Below, piece by piece: positions 2,025 to 42,224 of a stretch of 64,000 nucleotides of DNA. The first letter of the stretch is position 1. Every line of letters begins with the position of its first letter. The stretch is from Buttiauxella sp. (GTDB taxonomy: Bacteria; Pseudomonadota; Gammaproteobacteria; Enterobacterales; Enterobacteriaceae): positions 2,580 to 66,579 of the forward strand of contig DAMALH010000016.1 in the NCBI GenBank assembly GCA_032000125.1, written 5' to 3'. A program made the translations under genes and the position numbers. Below the pieces are notes generated by a model. It ran no database searches, was not told the origin of the DNA, and was given only the letters and a program-made list of their open reading frames with translations.

Positions 2025-2229
2025 AAAAAAAAGCACCGCGTTAAGCGGTGCTACATTAATCACTATGGACAGACAGGGTAAATGTACAGGAAGTGAAAAG
2101 GGGTAGCTTTGCTACCGGGGTCTGGAATGCCAGACCAATTGCAAACACAACAACACAACATCACAACCGTAAGCCAAAAGCCCTCCAGAACACGCATTCC
2201 AGACAGCTTTTCGTTCCGGCTCAGGAAGT
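2025..2229 (-). ncRNA. gcvB: GcvB small regulatory RNA
   Basis: The minus strand reads ACTTCCTGAGCCGGAACGAAAAG...GGCTTACGGTTGTGATGTTGTGTTGTTGTGTTTGCAATTGGTCTG...GTAGCAAAGCTACC...CACTTCCTGTACATTTACCCTGTCTGTCCATAGTGATTAATGTAGCACCGCTTAACGCGGTGCTTTTTTTT. This is near-identical to E. coli GcvB as I recall it, including the GU-rich R1 region and terminator. It is divergent from gcvA. Confidence 0.9.
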
Positions 2230-2357: not shown

Positions 2358-3275
2358 ATGTCCAAGCGTTTGCCACCTCTTAATGCGTTACGTGTTTTTG
2401 ATGCCGCCGCACGTCACCTGAGCTTTACTAAAGCGGCCGAAGAGCTATTCGTCACTCAGGCGGCCGTTAGCCACCAGATTAAGTCTCTGGAGGACTTTTT
2501 AGGGCTAAAGTTGTTCCGTCGCCGCAACCGCTCGCTGCTGCTCACTGAAGAAGGGCAGAGCTATTACCTCGATATTAAAGAGATTTTTTCTCAGCTCACC
2601 GAGGCGACGCGCAAGCTCCAGGCCAGAAGCGCAAAAGGCGCGCTGACGGTAAGTTTACTGCCAAGTTTTGCCATTCACTGGCTGGTGCCTCGCCTTTCCA
2701 GCTTTAACTCAGCTTATCCGGGAATTGATGTCCGTATACAGGCCGTTGACCGTCAGGAAGATAAGCTTTCTGACGATGTTGACGTGGCTATTTTTTACGG
2801 CCGCGGAAACTGGCCCGGCCTGCGGGTTGAAAAATTGTACGCTGAGTATTTGCTGCCGGTCTGCTCGCCGATGCTGCTTACGGGCGACAGGCCAATCAAA
2901 ACGCCGGACGATCTCGCGCACCACACTTTATTACACGATGCTTCGCGGCGGGACTGGCAAACCTATACGCGCCAGCTGGGCGTGAGCCACATTAACGTGC
3001 AGCAGGGGCCCATTTTCAGCCACAGCGCGATGGTGCTGCAGGCCGCCATTCACGGGCAGGGCATTGCGCTGGCGAATAACGTCATGGCGCAGTCTGAAAT
3101 CGAAGCGGGCCGCCTGGTTTGCCCTTTTAACGACGTGCTGGTGAGTAAAAATGCCTTTTATCTTGTTTGTCATGACAGTCAGGCAGAACTCGGTAAAATA
3201 GCCGCATTCCGGCAGTGGATCCTGGCGAAGGCCGCCAGTGAACAGGAAAAATTCCGCTTTCGCTACGATCAATAA
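2358..3275 (+). CDS. gcvA: LysR-family glycine cleavage system activator GcvA
   Basis: ORF track, 305 aa. The N-terminal HTH is MSKRLPPLNALRVFDAAARHLSFTKAAEELFVTQAAVSHQIK. The gene is divergent from gcvB. Confidence 0.95.
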   Translation: MSKRLPPLNALRVFDAAARHLSFTKAAEELFVTQAAVSHQIKSLEDFLGLKLFRRRNRSLLLTEEGQSYYLDIKEIFSQLTEATRKLQARSAKGALTVSLLPSFAIHWLVPRLSSFNSAYPGIDVRIQAVDRQEDKLSDDVDVAIFYGRGNWPGLRVEKLYAEYLLPVCSPMLLTGDRPIKTPDDLAHHTLLHDASRRDWQTYTRQLGVSHINVQQGPIFSHSAMVLQAAIHGQGIALANNVMAQSEIEAGRLVCPFNDVLVSKNAFYLVCHDSQAELGKIAAFRQWILAKAASEQEKFRFRYDQ

Positions 3276-8419: not shown

Positions 8420-9256
8420 ATGGAGATTCGTCAAAGCATTCACAGCGAACATGCGAAAACGCTGGATACGGCTGGTCTGCGCAAAGAGTTTTTGATTGAG
8501 AAGATTTTTATCGCCGATCGGTACACCATGACCTACAGCCATATCGACCGCATTATTGTCGGCGGCGTGATGCCGGTGACGCGCTCAGTGAGCGTGGGCG
8601 GTGAAGTGGGCAAACAACTGGGCGTGAGCTATTTTCTTGAGCGCCGGGAGCTGGGCGTTATCAACATTGGTGGCGCAGGCACCATTACGGTTGACGGCAC
8701 CTGCTATGAAATTGGTCATCGCGATGCGCTGTATGTAGGAAAGGGCGCGAGAGAAGTGGTGTTTGAAAGCGTTGATGCGGCGCAACCCGCCCGCTTTTAC
8801 TATAACTGCGCGCCGGCCCATACCACTTACCCAACCAGGCGCGTTACGCCTGCGGATGTATCACCGGTCACGCTGGGTGAAGACGTCACCAGCAATCGTC
8901 GCACTATCAACAAATATTTCGTTCCGGACGTGCTGGAAACCTGTCAGTTGAGCATGGGGCTAACGGAACTGGCGCCTGGCAACCTGTGGAACACCATGCC
9001 GTGCCACACCCATGAACGCCGTATGGAAGTCTATTTCTACTTTGGGCTGGAAGAGAATAGCTGCGTTTTCCATATGATGGGGCAGCCGCAGGAAACCCGT
9101 CATCTTGTGGTGCAAAATGAACAGGCCGTTATTTCGCCGAGCTGGTCGATTCACTCGGGCGTAGGCACGCGCGCTTATACCTTTATCTGGGGTATGGTGG
9201 GTGAGAATCAGGTGTTTGACGATATGGACCACGTCAAAGTGGGGGATTTGCGCTAG
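8420..9256 (+). CDS. kduI: 5-dehydro-4-deoxy-D-glucuronate isomerase KduI
   Basis: ORF track, 278 aa. It has cupin-type motifs ([16 protein letters not shown]) and a GAGGAG Shine-Dalgarno upstream. Confidence 0.9.
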
Positions 9257-9274
9257 GACGCTCCGCTATAAAAA

Positions 9275-9454
9275 AGGCCCTCAATCGAGGGCCTCAGATT
9301 GCTGACCAGGAAGTAAAAAGCGTAGTTTTTCCTTCCTGGTGATTATCAGCTGAAAATTAATGGATTGATTTTCCTTGTTTTTAAACGACAGCCCTTTTTA
9401 GTTTTATCACGCTGGAAGTTTTGTCGTCAGTCTGAGGCCCTCAATCGAGGGCCT
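9275..9454 (+). repeat. MITE-like structured repeat, copy A: 140-bp core (9295-9434) flanked by identical 20-bp hairpin copies (9275-9294 and 9435-9454)
   Basis: The direct repeat is AGGCCCTCAATCGAGGGCCT, present twice. Core termini are CAGATTGCTGAC...GTCGTCAGTCTG (imperfect inverted repeats). Internal hairpins lie at 9305-9340 and 9352-9373. The core aligns along its length with 10890-11031 and with the reverse complement of 40612-40751. Confidence 0.8.
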
Positions 9455-9460
9455 TGCTTT

Positions 9461-10825
9461 TTAATCACAGGAAACTTTCATCGCCAGCCCACCGCGTGAA
9501 GTTTCGCGGTATTTGGCGTTCATGTCCTTGCCGGTTTCATACATCGTTTCGATAACTTTATCGAGGGAAACGCGCGGCTCGCTGGTGCGACGCATCGCCA
9601 TACGAGCGGCGTTGACCGCTTTCACCGCGGCAATAGCGTTTCGCTCAATGCATGGCACCTGAACCTGGCCCGCGACCGGGTCGCAGGTAAGCCCGAGGTT
9701 ATGTTCCATGCCGATTTCCGCCGCGATACAAACCTGTGCCGGGCTGCCGCCCAATAGCTCCGCAAGGCCTGCCGCCGCCATTGAACAGGCTACGCCGACC
9801 TCGCCCTGGCATCCTACTTCTGCCCCGGAAATCGAAGCGTTCATTTTATACAGGGACCCGATAACGCCCGCCGCCAGGAAATAGCGCGCGCAGGAGTTTG
9901 CGTTTACTTCCCGGATGAACTTATCGTAGTACGCCAGCACCGCAGGGACGATACCGCAGGCGCCGTTGGTTGGGGCGGTAACAACTCGGCCGCCCGCAGC
10001 GTTCTCTTCGTTAACCGCCAGGGCAAACATGTTGATCCAGTCCACCACGGCCATTGGGTCGGAGTTGTTCTTATCGCTGCTTACCAGCATCCTGCGTAAC
10101 GCTGCCGCACGGCGCGGTACACGCATTTTGCCCGGCAGCACGCCTTCGGTGGTGATGCCGCGTTCAATGCCGCCGCGCATCACTTGCCAGACGTTGGCGA
10201 AATGCGCGTCGATTTCCGCCTGGCTATGCATTGCTCGTTCGTTTTGCATCATCAGTCCCGAGAGCGACAGGCCGGTTTCATCGCAGTGTTTGCGTAAATC
10301 CGTTGCGTTCTTATACGGATAAGGCACAGCAACTTGTTGGGTATCTTCCTGCCCAAAATGCGCCTCATCGACGATAAAGCCGCCGCCGATGGAATAGTAT
10401 GTCTGGCCGTACAATGCCTTATCGCCTGCCATCGCCGTGATTCGCATACCGTTTTCATGCAGAGAGAGGTTGTCGGTATGGAAATTCATGCAGCGGTCTA
10501 CCGGGAATTCCACCTCGTGCGCGCCATTAGCCAGCATCAGTCGGCCATGGGTGTTCACATCCTGAATGAAATGCGGAATGGCATCGATATTCACGGTATC
10601 CGGCAGGTTACCTGCGAGTCCCATAATAATTGCGATATCGGTATGGTGGCCTTTACCGGTCAGAGAGAGCGAGCCATAAACGTCAACAATGACGCGGGTG
10701 ACATCGCGCAATATCCCTTGCGCAATTAAGTCATCAGCGAACTGTTTGCCAGCCTTCATTGGGCCGACGGTATGGGAGCTGGAAGGTCCGATACCGATTT
10801 TAAAAATGTCGAATACGCTAATCAT
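9461..10825 (-). CDS. sdaB: L-serine dehydratase 2 (iron-sulfur dependent)
   Basis: ORF track, 454 aa, starting MISVFDIFKIGIGPSSSHTVGPMKAGKQF... It lies downstream of sdaC as in E. coli. Confidence 0.95.
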   Translation of the reverse strand: MISVFDIFKIGIGPSSSHTVGPMKAGKQFADDLIAQGILRDVTRVIVDVYGSLSLTGKGHHTDIAIIMGLAGNLPDTVNIDAIPHFIQDVNTHGRLMLANGAHEVEFPVDRCMNFHTDNLSLHENGMRITAMAGDKALYGQTYYSIGGGFIVDEAHFGQEDTQQVAVPYPYKNATDLRKHCDETGLSLSGLMMQNERAMHSQAEIDAHFANVWQVMRGGIERGITTEGVLPGKMRVPRRAAALRRMLVSSDKNNSDPMAVVDWINMFALAVNEENAAGGRVVTAPTNGACGIVPAVLAYYDKFIREVNANSCARYFLAAGVIGSLYKMNASISGAEVGCQGEVGVACSMAAAGLAELLGGSPAQVCIAAEIGMEHNLGLTCDPVAGQVQVPCIERNAIAAVKAVNAARMAMRRTSEPRVSLDKVIETMYETGKDMNAKYRETSRGGLAMKVSCD

Positions 10826-10864: not shown

Positions 10865-11056
10865 ACCGCCCGCAGAAAGCGGGCGGTTTTACTTTTTGAC
10901 AAAGAAAGAAAAAACGTGGTTTTTCCTTCTTTGTGGTCATCTGTCGAAAATTAATGAATTAATTTTCCATGTTAATTTTTCATCGGGATATTTTCTTCTC
11001 GCTACCGCAAGAGATTTGTTATCCGTTTCTGACCGCCCGCAGAAAGCGGGCGGTTT
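10865..11056 (+). repeat. MITE-like structured repeat, copy B (diverged): 142-bp core (10890-11031) flanked by identical 25-bp hairpin copies (10865-10889 and 11032-11056)
   Basis: The direct repeat is ACCGCCCGCAGAAAGCGGGCGGTTT, present twice. Internal hairpins lie at 10899-10934 and 10946-10967, homologous to those of copy A. The element sits in the sdaC-sdaB intercistronic region. Confidence 0.75.
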
Positions 11057-15979: not shown

Positions 15980-16349
15980 ACAGGACGTCGAATAGTGAAG
16001 GCGACATCAGGATGACGTCCCTTCATGCGGAAGCGGAACACGTCAGGAAGGCGTTACAGGGAAGGCTTCAGGAAGAAGCAAGGAACCACTCAGGATGAGT
16101 AAGGGACACCTCCAGGAAGGAGAATGAGAGCCGAATCAGGGTGATTGGCGGGTCAGGAAGACTAAAGGATTTCGCAGCAGGATGATGCAGGACACCAGCA
16201 GGATGCCGGTTGCAGGATGCATGTACGATGGATTGTAGGTCAGGAGACCGCAGGACAAAGTTGTCACGGACGAGCAGGGAGCACTAAAAGTAGCCGGATT
16301 AGCTGCGAAACGAACCGGGAGCACTGTTTATACAGTGCTCCCTTTTTTT
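15980..16349 (+). ncRNA. csrB: CsrB, the CsrA-sequestering sRNA (5' end approximate)
   Basis: By my hand count there are more than 20 GGA triplets, many as CAGGA(U/A)G in short hairpin contexts (for example ACATCAGGATGACGT, CTCCAGGAAGGAG). The 3' end, GAGCAGGGAGCACTAAAAGTAGCCGGATTAGCTGCGAAACGAACC plus terminator GGGAGCACTGTTTATACAGTGCTCCCTTTTTTT, is almost identical to E. coli CsrB. The gene lies between syd and yqcC as in E. coli. Confidence 0.9.
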
Positions 16350-16419
16350 ATGCTTTTTTTCGCCAGGCCAAAGAAGTGATATGCTTGCCCGCTTTATTGG
16401 CCTGACGTATGAGGTTTTT

Positions 16420-39803: not shown

Positions 39804-39915
39804 CCATGGCCGACCGGCTCGGTCGCCCCCCGATTGAGCCGGTCACCCCCTTTAAGCATGATCTCAGTCGCCAGTTCTGCGATAATTAGTTTTTACGACT
39901 ATTACAGAGATGATT

Positions 39916-40587
39916 ATGCAGTACCCGATTAACGAGATGTTCCAGACCCTGCAAGGGGAGGGCTATTTTACCGGTGTGCCCGCCATCTTTATCCGCCTGC
40001 AGGGCTGCCCGGTGGGCTGCGCGTGGTGCGATACCAAACACACCTGGGATAAACTCGCGGATCGTGAAGTGTCTCTGTTCAGTATTCTCGCCAAAACTAA
40101 AGAGAGCGATAAATGGGGCGCGGCAAGCGCGGAAGACTTGCTGGCCGTGATGCAGCGTCAGGGCTACACCGCCCGTCACGTGGTGATTACCGGCGGTGAA
40201 CCATGTATCCACGATCTGCATCCCTTAACGTCTTTGCTGGAACACCACGGCTTTAGCTGCCAGATTGAAACCAGCGGCACGCACGATGTCCGCTGCTCGG
40301 CGGCAACCTGGGTAACGGTATCGCCGAAGGTGAATATGCGCGGCGGTTACGACGTGCTTGCTCAGGCGCTGGAACGAGCGGACGAAATCAAACATCCCGT
40401 TGGCCGCATGCGCGACATCGAGGCGTTAGATGAGCTGCTAAGAACGCTTCACGATGACAAAAACCGCATTATCGCCCTGCAGCCTATCAGCCAGAAAGAA
40501 GACGCCACCCGGCTGTGTATTGAAACCTGCATTGCCCGCAACTGGCGGCTTTCGATGCAGACGCATAAGTACCTGAATATCGCCTAG
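39916..40587 (+). CDS. queE: 7-carboxy-7-deazaguanine synthase QueE (radical SAM)
   Basis: ORF track 39910..40587. MQYPINEMFQTLQGEGYFTGVPAIFIRLQGCPVGCAWCDTKHTW matches E. coli QueE. Confidence 0.95.
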   Translation: MQYPINEMFQTLQGEGYFTGVPAIFIRLQGCPVGCAWCDTKHTWDKLADREVSLFSILAKTKESDKWGAASAEDLLAVMQRQGYTARHVVITGGEPCIHDLHPLTSLLEHHGFSCQIETSGTHDVRCSAATWVTVSPKVNMRGGYDVLAQALERADEIKHPVGRMRDIEALDELLRTLHDDKNRIIALQPISQKEDATRLCIETCIARNWRLSMQTHKYLNIA

Positions 40588-40591
40588 TAAA

Positions 40592-40771
40592 AAGGCACCT
40601 GTCGGTGCCTTGAGACTGATGACAACCTCTCCAGCGTGACAAAACTAAAAAGTGCCGTCATTTAAAAACAAGGAAAATCAATTCATTGATTTTCATCTGG
40701 TAATCACAAAGAAGGAAAAACCACGCTTTTTTCTTCTTTGTCAGCAATCTGAAGGCACCTGTCGGTGCCTT
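40592..40771 (-). repeat. MITE-like structured repeat, copy C (inverted relative to A): 140-bp core (40612-40751) flanked by identical 20-bp hairpin copies (40592-40611 and 40752-40771)
   Basis: The direct repeat is AAGGCACCTGTCGGTGCCTT, present twice. The reverse complement of the core aligns base-for-base with copy A (CAGATTGCTGAC...TTGATTTTCCTTGTTTTTAA...TTTTTAGTTTT.TCACGCTGGA...CAGTCT). Internal hairpins lie at 40706-40741 and 40673-40694. Confidence 0.8.
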
Positions 40772-40775
40772 TTCC

Positions 40776-42224
40776 TTAGTCGACCAGCGGACTCAGCTTC
40801 TGCAACAGCGGGTCAAGGTACTGATTCACCTGCCGATAAACCCCTTCGTTAAGCTGCGTATAAAATGTGTGGTTGCCCATATTGGGCTGGAAGTTATCGC
40901 CCATGCGAATCATCTTCTCGCTCGCTTCCTCGTAGCTTGCGAATGTGCCCACCGCCATCCCGGCGTTAATTGCGCAGCCCACGGAGGCTGAACCTTTCAG
41001 CAGATTGCGGCAGGTTGGCACGCCGAACACGTCGGCAAAAATCTGCATAAACAGGTCGCTGTTGGCGCCGCCGCCGGAAATGATTAGCTGTTTAAACGGC
41101 GTTTTAAGCTCCAGCGCCATCTTGTCCATGTGATTTTTCATGGTGAAGGCAATGCCCTCCAGAATCGAGCGGTACATATGCGCCCGGGTATGGCGGCCGT
41201 CAAAACCAATTATCGTCCCTTTGCGGAACTCAGCCTCCGAAGGCGGCGCCCAGTCGTGAACGGTGATGAGCCCCTCGCAGCCTGCGGGTACTTTTGTGGC
41301 CTCGGCGTTGAGCAATTCTTCGATGGTTAAATCGAGGTCTTTCGCGTCCGCCAGCGCCGCGGCGCCAAACTGATCCCGGAACCAGCTTATCGTCCACATT
41401 CCCCGGCGAACGCCCATGCATTCATAGAGGTAGCGATGAGGAATCGAGGCCTGGAAAGGCCAGAAGTTTTGCGCGTCCTTCACGTTTTCATCGCCGTGGA
41501 CCATTGCGCCGATATAGGTACCCAGGGAGATAAGCGCCACGCCTTTCTCAAGCGTACCTGCACCAAGGGCTTCTACCGCTTTATCATGCGCCGTTGCCAC
41601 AACCGGAATACCGGCCGGAAGGCCAATAAGCCTGGCCGCTTTGTCAGTTAATTTGCCCAGCACTTCCCCCGGCTTCACCACGTCCAGCACCTGCGCGCGT
41701 TCAAGATTACAGCTCTTCCACGCCTGCGGATCGGTGCTCCAGTCGAGCGTGTCATTGTCCATCGGCCACCAGCCGATGTAGTTGGCGCAGGTATCCTTAA
41801 ACTCGCCGGTCAGGCGATGGGTGATATAGCCCGACGTCGTGGTGACGTAGCGCACGCCCTGATAGGCATCAAGGTATTCGTAAGGCTTGTTGAGTCGCTT
41901 ATCCATCCAGTTGATCACCGGGTAAGCCAGCTCGCCGTTGGCCGTCAGCAGCACGCGGCAGCAGCGCACGATGCAAATCCCCATCGCCTGAATTCGGCTG
42001 GTATCGCGTCCCTGGCGGGTAAAATTCGCCACCGCCTCGCGGAAGGCGACCTGTAACGAGTCCCACAGATCGTCATCGGGGTGCTCCGCCAGCAGCGGCG
42101 CGGGAATATCCAGATTGCGCAGCGCCTGTTTCCCTTCGCTGACCACGTTGCCCTGCGTATCAAAAATCACCACCTTGGCGCTTTGCGTGCCGACATCCAC
42201 ACCCATCAAATAGTTAGTTGTCAT
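40776..42224 (-). CDS. ygcE: FGGY-family carbohydrate kinase (YgcE-like)
   Basis: ORF track, 482 aa, with the N-terminal FGGY motif LMGVDVGTQSAKVVIFD. It sits next to queE as in E. coli. Confidence 0.8.
   Translation of the reverse strand: MTTNYLMGVDVGTQSAKVVIFDTQGNVVSEGKQALRNLDIPAPLLAEHPDDDLWDSLQVAFREAVANFTRQGRDTSRIQAMGICIVRCCRVLLTANGELAYPVINWMDKRLNKPYEYLDAYQGVRYVTTTSGYITHRLTGEFKDTCANYIGWWPMDNDTLDWSTDPQAWKSCNLERAQVLDVVKPGEVLGKLTDKAARLIGLPAGIPVVATAHDKAVEALGAGTLEKGVALISLGTYIGAMVHGDENVKDAQNFWPFQASIPHRYLYECMGVRRGMWTISWFRDQFGAAALADAKDLDLTIEELLNAEATKVPAGCEGLITVHDWAPPSEAEFRKGTIIGFDGRHTRAHMYRSILEGIAFTMKNHMDKMALELKTPFKQLIISGGGANSDLFMQIFADVFGVPTCRNLLKGSASVGCAINAGMAVGTFASYEEASEKMIRMGDNFQPNMGNHTFYTQLNEGVYRQVNQYLDPLLQKLSPLVD

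Follow-up and report, generated by a model that had tools for sequence, protein, structure and literature searches.

Terminator targeting combined with duplication of the whole hairpin is already described for YPAL (2006), IS1630 (1999) and the IS1182 family. The YPAL repeats of Yersinia are accompanied by duplications of 3-26 bp at dyad symmetries (PMC2229807). IS1630 of Mycoplasma fermentans, an insertion sequence (IS) of the IS30 family, is reported to produce duplications of 16-26 bp, elsewhere given as 19-26 bp (Calcutt et al. 1999). In staphylococci, IS1272, a member of the IS1182 family, targets stem-loops that vary in size and sequence (Wan et al. 2017, PMC5678879), and 'pathway b' of the cruciform model proposed for IS1272 duplicates the entire stem-loop (PMC5678879). 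Some IS1182 members target palindromes according to Siguier et al., as cited in PMC5678879. The present analysis concerns a 140-bp non-coding element located between kduI and sdaB in a 64,000-nucleotide stretch of Buttiauxella sp. (contig DAMALH010000016.1, positions 2,580 to 66,579; referred to as the window). It is very probably a non-autonomous miniature transposon, or MITE (miniature inverted-repeat transposable element), of IS1182 type, which lands in terminator hairpins and duplicates the whole hairpin. The original prediction, made from the letters of this stretch, had considered hairpin duplications of 20-25 bp to lie beyond known precedent. This has to be withdrawn in view of the YPAL, IS1630 and IS1182-family cases described and of the IS1668-like cases observed directly here.

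Duplicated hairpins around a dispersed 140-bp element

The first copy (9295-9434, plus strand) is 140 bp long with a GC content of 38%, and it is enclosed by the convergent genes kduI (8420-9256, plus strand) and sdaB (9461-10825, minus strand). The Pfam assignments of both genes were made on JGI metagenome 3300011900 contig Ga0120971_100073, which is 100% identical over the stretches compared. The 90% identity cluster to which KduI belongs comprises Cronobacter, Buttiauxella and Franconibacter. The element is flanked at 9275-9294 and 9435-9454 by identical 20-bp hairpins (AGGCCCTCAATCGAGGGCCT) with a GC stem of 8-9 bp and a loop of 4 nt. Together with the upstream A-run, the left hairpin makes up the minus-strand terminator of sdaB, and the right hairpin, together with the downstream T-run, the plus-strand terminator of kduI. 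The core starts with CAGATTGCTGAC, and the reverse complement of its end reads CAGACTGACGAC. Its terminal inverted repeats occupy 9295-9310 (CAGATTGCTGACCAGG, plus strand) and 9419-9434 (TTTTGTCGTCAGTCTG, plus strand). A subterminal hairpin at 9305-9340 (plus strand) has a 15-bp stem and a 6-nt loop, its arms (9305-9319 and 9326-9340) are 93% complementary, and comparison with other copies reveals compensatory changes in it. An AT palindrome in the middle (9352-9373), at most 2 bp from the centre of the element, matches the consensus of integration host factor (IHF), WATCAANNNNTTR, a candidate site by consensus only. The only open reading frames (ORFs) overlapping the copy encode 34 and 44 amino acids, and none is credible.

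Two further copies are found in the window, each around a different duplicated hairpin. Copy 2 (10890-11031, plus strand; 142 bp) is located in the sdaB-sdaC spacer between two 25-bp hairpins at 10865-10889 and 11032-11056 (ACCGCCCGCAGAAAGCGGGCGGTTT). Copy 3 (40612-40751, minus strand; 140 bp) has the left repeat CAGATTGCTGACAAAG and is bordered by 20-bp hairpins at 40592-40611 and 40752-40771 (AAGGCACCTGTCGGTGCCTT). It is placed between the convergent queE (39910-40587, plus strand) and a sugar-kinase-like ORF (40776-42224, minus strand). The three occurrences of the core motif in the window compare with 0.00 expected from shuffles. As predicted, the two hairpins of copy 1 are identical on sequence comparison, the in-silico removal of 9295-9454 restores an A-run, a hairpin and a T-run, the imperfect terminal repeats, internal hairpins and lack of a credible ORF are all seen again, and the additional copies are present at 10865-11056 and 40592-40771. 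In copy 2 the termini are decayed, yet the 25-bp duplication is perfect, and the duplication thus looks younger than the termini. Selection on the stem and gene conversion between the hairpins are both possibilities that could account for it.

The family was followed in other genomes by a census with a degenerate core pattern, using one genome per bacterial species. At least 118 stretches from about ten enterobacterial genera were collected, and the 118 testable copies of these other genomes were each scored for the best direct repeat on both sides of the core; the figures that follow hold among the matches listed. Perfect flanking repeats of at least 16 bp were found in 73 of the 118 copies, and repeats with no more than three mismatches, often in the loop, in about 95 of them, so chance cannot account for the repeats. 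This tabulation of flanks, which had been proposed together with the prediction, thus yielded hairpin repeats for the large group just mentioned. The repeats are 16-31 bp long, most often 20-22, the insert measures 139-142 bp, and the GC content of the family is 39%. Every repeat is a GC-rich hairpin of its own sequence, and the perfect stem typically comprises 6-13 bp. In nearly all copies a fixed distance of 29-30 nt separates the end of the left repeat from the core motif, and the right half of the element is highly variable between subfamilies.

The hosts include several species of Scandinavium as well as Dryocola, Buttiauxella, Cedecea, Citrobacter, Klebsiella, Serratia grimesii, Tenebrionibacter and metagenome-assembled genomes (MAGs) of Enterobacteriaceae. 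A BLAST search with the core against 5,426 genomes of E. coli gave no match. In Scandinavium sp. SGZ-S8, which carries at least 50 copies, at least 105 pairs of copies share at least 97% identity, and some copies at different loci are identical. The prediction of a MITE-like mobile element is borne out by the terminal inverted repeats, the lack of an ORF, the more than 118 dispersed copies and the identity of copies at different loci within a genome. Variants with internal deletions also occur: two elements of 98 bp (L111, 6620-6717) and 88 bp (L051, about 3186-3273) have lost the central palindrome and retain perfect hairpin duplications of 19 and 23 bp, respectively.

The flanking hairpin repeats are target-site duplications, because the hairpin differs from copy to copy and is present only once at orthologous empty sites. 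In E. coli, Salmonella, K. aerogenes and K. pneumoniae, for instance, the sdaC-sdaB spacer contains a single hairpin and no element. Further orthologous pairs of a filled and an empty site (L054/L099, L103/L111 and L071/L084) likewise show one hairpin at each empty site. The repeats had been predicted to behave in this manner, and two tandem hairpins at the empty sites had been named as the observation that would speak against it; single hairpins are what the four orthologous empty sites contain. An exact-protein look-up for conspecific empty sites of the three window insertions returned the same filled contig alone. In Scandinavium sp. SGZ-S8 (L010) the sdaC-sdaB spacer is also occupied, and the flanking repeat is no longer detectable there.

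It is hardly credible that the flanking hairpins are attachment-site copies carried by the element, or pre-existing tandem hairpins which received the core. Integrative elements are frequently bordered by direct repeats and tandem terminators do occur, but more than 90 copies among the matches listed each have a hairpin of different sequence. The four empty sites with one hairpin and the fixed position of the left junction in nearly all copies speak against both variants as well.

In some cases different genera carry an element in one and the same orthologous terminator, and it belongs each time to the genome's own subfamily (L012/L073/L053, L001/L055 and L037/L115/L077). The two hairpins of a pair are identical to each other, and their sequence is particular to each genome. 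At such sites an element is most closely related to a paralog of its own genome (up to 100% identity) and not to the ortholog (75-84%), which indicates that these terminators were hit independently and recently. Hot-spot terminators with recurrent independent insertion, and not inheritance, are suggested by this pattern.

As for the type of target, 72 copies among the matches listed were compared. The centre of the repeat coincides with the dyad centre of the hairpin within 1 bp in 60 of these copies, and the repeat usually spans the GC core plus 1-3 bp per side. A T-rich flank is present downstream at 59 of the 72 sites and an A-rich flank upstream at 50; 67 sites have at least one of the two and 42 have both. 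The targets therefore resemble intrinsic terminators, often bidirectional ones, as the original prediction had proposed. Most duplications start with AA, AG or AC and finish with TT or CT.

Common ends with IS1182-family insertion sequences and YPAL

A 31-nt probe made from the terminal repeat was run against a plasmid collection with a permissive E-value. Perfect matches of 19 nt were obtained in ten Providencia plasmids and in Salmonella plasmids. In Providencia pPROV040-OXA and Salmonella CP053580.1 the match is located 63 nt upstream of a gene annotated as an IS1182-family transposase. The protein scores 487 bits with NF033551 (cut-off 270) and also matches PF13751 (DDE_Tnp_1_6), PF05598 (DUF772) and PF01609 (DDE_Tnp_1). 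The IS of pPROV040-OXA is 1,596 bp long; it starts with CAGACTGCTGACAAAG, followed by a hairpin (CAAAGTCCTCGC...GAGGACTTTG), and ends in ...GGGGTTCGTCATCAATCTG. Four of its six copies on this plasmid have perfect duplications of 20, 20, 21 and 19 bp, all of them complete hairpins with A/T-run flanks. Homologues of the transposase with 70-83% identity occur in Serratia, Citrobacter, Klebsiella, Raoultella, Salmonella, E. coli and Yersinia, including the 'transposase for IS1668' of Yersinia enterocolitica. The IS1668 copies have the same ends as the IS of pPROV040-OXA and hairpin duplications of 18, 21, 20 and 23 bp.

The two remaining copies on pPROV040-OXA have hairpins of 21 and 22 bp that are swapped between them, which indicates an inversion between the copies. 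Such swapped flanks were seen at L131 (27874-29313) and L132 (33975-35414) of this plasmid and at L137, L138, L140 and L141 of Yersinia enterocolitica; they record inversions or recombination between IS copies. Two tandem copies of the IS1182-family element are present on the Salmonella plasmid CP053580.1 (L130, 3004-6002). The second copy begins within the left-end hairpin, directly after the right end of the first, an arrangement similar to the tandem duplications of the left end that have been reported for IS1272.

Over its first 16 nt, the MITE consensus agrees with the left end of the IS at 15 positions, and many single copies agree at all 16, so that CAGACTGCTGACAAAG is identical in the IS1668-like elements and in many MITE copies. 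Within the window the match is 15/16 for copy 3 and 13/16 for copy 1. Directly after the left repeat, the IS1668-like elements carry a CAAAG...CTTTG hairpin equivalent to the subterminal hairpin of the MITE, and their right end (...GTTCGTCAKCARTCTG) resembles that of the MITE. Both duplicate terminator-like hairpins, of 18-23 bp in the IS and 16-31 bp in the MITE. They differ in that the IS is autonomous, with about 1.6 kb and a DDE transposase of 478-489 amino acids, whereas the MITE is devoid of coding capacity; the inner part of the MITE, with its central IHF-like palindrome, is unrelated to that of the IS.

Mobilisation by an IS30-family transposase of the IS1630 type is very improbable. 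IS1630 is the other IS for which the targeting and duplication of inverted repeats that vary in length are known, and its phenotype is that of the MITE; it belongs to a different transposase family and phylum, and the likeness is one of behaviour only. The ends of E. coli IS30 give no significant match, since an equal or better score was reached by 198 of 500 and 91 of 500 shuffles, while the IS1182-family ends match at 15-16 of 16 positions, with the same duplications and in the same bacterial order. A resemblance to the IS30 terminal repeat (AGATT...TGTCAA) was likewise dismissed as no better than shuffles.

YPAL is among the described repeats close to the IS1182-type MITE, whose ends (CAGAYTGCTGACAAAG) match those of YPAL/RU-2 and of the IS1182-family IS. 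The ends of YPAL/RU-2 (CAGACTGCTGACAAAC... and ...TTTGTCAATAACCTC) agree with the left end of the MITE consensus at 14 of 16 positions, and YPAL agrees with the left end of the IS1182-family IS at 15 of 16. The published RU-2 starts with ttCAGACTGCTGACAAAC and ends with TTTGTCAATAACCTCa, termini as in the 140-bp MITE (PMC2759123). Both are intergenic, lie in 3' untranslated regions (3'UTRs) and occupy terminator-like hairpins with long, variable duplications; three YPAL copies examined here showed perfect or near-perfect hairpin duplications of 23, 21 and 19 bp. Nevertheless, YPAL measures 167-168 bp with 55% GC against 139-142 bp with 39% GC in the MITE, and local alignment of the cores scores 7, compared with a shuffle mean of 7.8, so that no similarity is detectable. 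The hosts are Yersinia in one case and genera of Enterobacteriaceae in the other, and a BLAST search with RU-2 retrieved no member of the 140-bp family. The unrelated core, GC content and length indicate that the 140-bp MITE is distinct from YPAL and represents a sister family that shares its ends. A Yersinia family called 'kristensenii2' (count 50) ends in TTTGTCAGCAGTCTGA, the same terminal repeat (PMC2847712, Additional file 6). At least three MITE families with unrelated cores thus have common ends.

A YPAL-like element 75% identical to RU-2 was observed on the E. coli plasmid p027_SK3a (L127, 1501-1664) and on 14 other plasmids. The carriers are conjugative or mobilizable plasmids of E. 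coli, Klebsiella, Citrobacter and Shigella. The copy on p027_SK3a has a 19-bp hairpin duplication with two mismatches in the loop.

Several catalogued repeats were considered and rejected. The defining features of ERIC/IRU, Correia and RUP-type elements are a TA target duplication and 5'-TA-3' termini (PMC2229807). These IS630-like MITEs do not fit the present family, whose duplications are hairpins of 16-31 bp and whose ends are CAGA.../...TCTG. REP/BIME units are conserved GC-rich palindromes of 20-40 bp, often clustered. Here the flanking hairpins all differ, the core is AT-rich, and E. coli gave no match. The earlier impression that the element is neither ERIC/IRU nor REP/BIME is therefore upheld. 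Two candidates chosen by length from the Yersinia genus paper, 'Kristensenii39 (142 bp)' and 'Aldovae3', turned out to be ERIC variants.

It is conceivable, if somewhat doubtful, that the 140-bp family is still unnamed and that the link of YPAL and of this family to IS1668-like IS1182-family ends and whole-hairpin duplication is unreported; in the literature search no paper was found which connects YPAL-type repeats or the 140-bp family to IS1668-like elements of the IS1182 family. A 140-bp family with a central IHF-like palindrome, widespread in Enterobacteriaceae, may be new, and modestly so. If the link is true, it gives the orphan repeats YPAL and the 140-bp family a likely enzyme family, the IS1182 or IS1668-like DDE transposases.

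Target recognition and joining

The element encodes nothing and is presumably moved in trans by an IS1182-family DDE transposase. The enzyme would select a GC-rich palindrome with A/T-run flanks, i.e. an intrinsic terminator, and not a sequence. The two 3'-OH ends of the transposon may be joined at the 5' foot of the hairpin, one per strand, most likely on an extruded cruciform, where both phosphates sit close. On each side the whole hairpin would then be single-stranded, and gap repair would copy it. The expected outcome is a duplication equal to the hairpin (16-31 bp) and centred on its axis, and each insertion would yield a second copy of its own target. The geometry of the natural insertions fits such a scheme, as duplications that vary from 16 to 31 bp in length and yet remain centred on the dyad are not compatible with a fixed stagger set by a protein. 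Structure-guided staggered joining at the foot of a hairpin, put forward in the original prediction, is thus supported by the length range and by the dyad-centred copies (within 1 bp in 60/72).

Tandem arrays were observed at L006 (5694-5903, minus strand), L092 and L108 (163-503), where one hairpin is present three times, in alternation with two MITE copies. L099, from a related Scandinavium MAG, has one copy where L006 carries two. The sharing of hairpins in these arrays is explained if each insertion makes a second copy of its own target.

IS1272 and the enterobacterial elements have the transposase family and the stem-loop target in common. IS1272, however, deletes the target stem-loop without any duplication, and its model places the joints at the 3' foot ('stem-loop replacing'), whereas in the enterobacterial elements the stem-loop is duplicated and the joints are predicted at its 5' foot. 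There is also a likeness to Cas1-Cas2 and casposases, where two staggered joints border a repeat that is often palindromic and the whole repeat is duplicated, and IHF and cruciform-prone inverted repeats are implicated for Cas1-Cas2 (PMC5137440). The enzyme there is Cas1 and not a DDE transposase, and the repeat is fixed, located beside the leader and of fixed length; the comparison is an analogy only.

IHF might also play a part in the present family. In 125 of 126 copies the central palindrome GAAAATCAATGAATTGATTTTC matches the IHF consensus on both strands. A bend at this site probably brings the ends of the 140-bp DNA together for pairing, as a hypothesis. Functional IHF sites have been reported in Correia elements, and IHF assists Cas1-Cas2 integration (PMC5137440).

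Target choice could alternatively depend on sequence or composition, with a transposase dimer that reads the boundaries of A-run, GC core and T-run on duplex DNA and no cruciform involved. The AA, AG or AC starts and TT or CT ends of most duplications agree with this, as do the A/T-rich flanks, and the extrusion of stems of 7-12 bp as a cruciform is energetically costly in vivo. The spacing of the joints, on the other hand, varies between 16 and 31 bp and remains dyad-symmetric, which would be hard to achieve for a rigid synaptic complex on B-DNA, and the hairpin sequences have no motif in common. Duplex reading is thus considered rather unlikely, and the same holds for its variant with a flexible protein dimer that follows the A/T-GC-A/T transitions on B-DNA.

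Several points weigh against an IS1182-type MITE that recognises cruciforms. The possible flexible dimer just mentioned is one of them, and the case for cruciform recognition is a geometrical one throughout. Duplication length correlates with a crude measure of the perfect stem at only 0.45. The match of the central palindrome to IHF is inflated by ascertainment bias, because the collecting pattern fixed most of the palindrome. Covariation in the subterminal hairpin amounts to four compensatory pairs in few sequences. The right end of the MITE agrees with that of the IS at 12-13 of 16 positions, poorer than the left. Finally, tblastn for an IS1182-family transposase found none in the window or in loci L001-L128, about 0.9 Mb of MITE-bearing sequence. 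A candidate autonomous partner with the same termini, which the original prediction had suggested looking for in the same genome, exists as an IS1668-like IS in other Enterobacterales, and none was seen in the window or in L001-L128. Apparent long elements bounded by the same ends or hairpin duplications in the fetched loci proved to be MITE pairs (L057, L111), tandems or deletion variants.

Expected effects on neighbouring genes and significance

In a terminator scan, a stem with a T-tail was detected only at 9433-9456 (plus strand) and 9295-9274 (minus strand). At the filled site, the hairpin proximal to each gene is without a T-tract, which leaves the distal copy as the sole full terminator. 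The kduI and sdaB transcripts should therefore cross the element and stop at the distal hairpin. It had been predicted that insertion leaves both neighbours with an intact terminator: each gene does retain one, but the distal one, about 160 nt further on, and not the one in place. After insertion, the element would become part of both 3'UTRs.

The RNA of the hairpin-element-hairpin unit is predicted to fold with -82.9 kcal/mol (z = -7.5). Transcripts bearing YPAL reportedly reach higher levels in the work of De Gregorio et al. (2006). This higher accumulation, the strong fold and the necessary co-transcription of the element with both neighbours would suit a functional RNA or regulatory module, e.g., a 3'UTR stabiliser or a small RNA (sRNA), distributed by selection and not by transposition. 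That the element is primarily such a module is improbable. A search of Rfam at gathering and permissive thresholds gave nothing at E < 0.1 in 9200-9520, the right half varies highly between subfamilies, and the fold energy is largely trivial, since it results from the duplicated palindromes and the terminal repeats. Spread by transposition is shown by the terminal repeats, by the duplication of the targets and by an autonomous IS that has these ends. An RNA role, if any, would be secondary and compatible with the mobility of the IS1182-type MITE.

Insertions of this type would extend the 3'UTRs of both neighbours by about 160 nt and shift the effective terminator. They also explain an odd layout of enterobacterial intergenic regions, two identical terminators around about 140 bp, which is easily misannotated as an sRNA gene, a tandem terminator or an assembly artefact. 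Structure-directed targeting was previously proposed mostly from a few IS1272 and IS1630 insertions; about 95 MITE and 14 IS insertions are now available as a data set. If the link to IS1668-like elements is true, it provides a defined enzyme-substrate pair for a DDE transposase which measures by DNA structure, the foot of a terminator cruciform, and hundreds of natural insertions already show that duplication length follows hairpin size. Moreover, the insertions can serve as polymorphic markers, and orthologous terminators are occupied independently in different genera.

Elsewhere in the window, the Rfam search matched only two sRNAs, CsrB/RsmB at 15985-16352 (plus strand, 278 bits) and GcvB at 2025-2229 (minus strand, 189 bits). 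Both fit a chromosome of Enterobacteriaceae.

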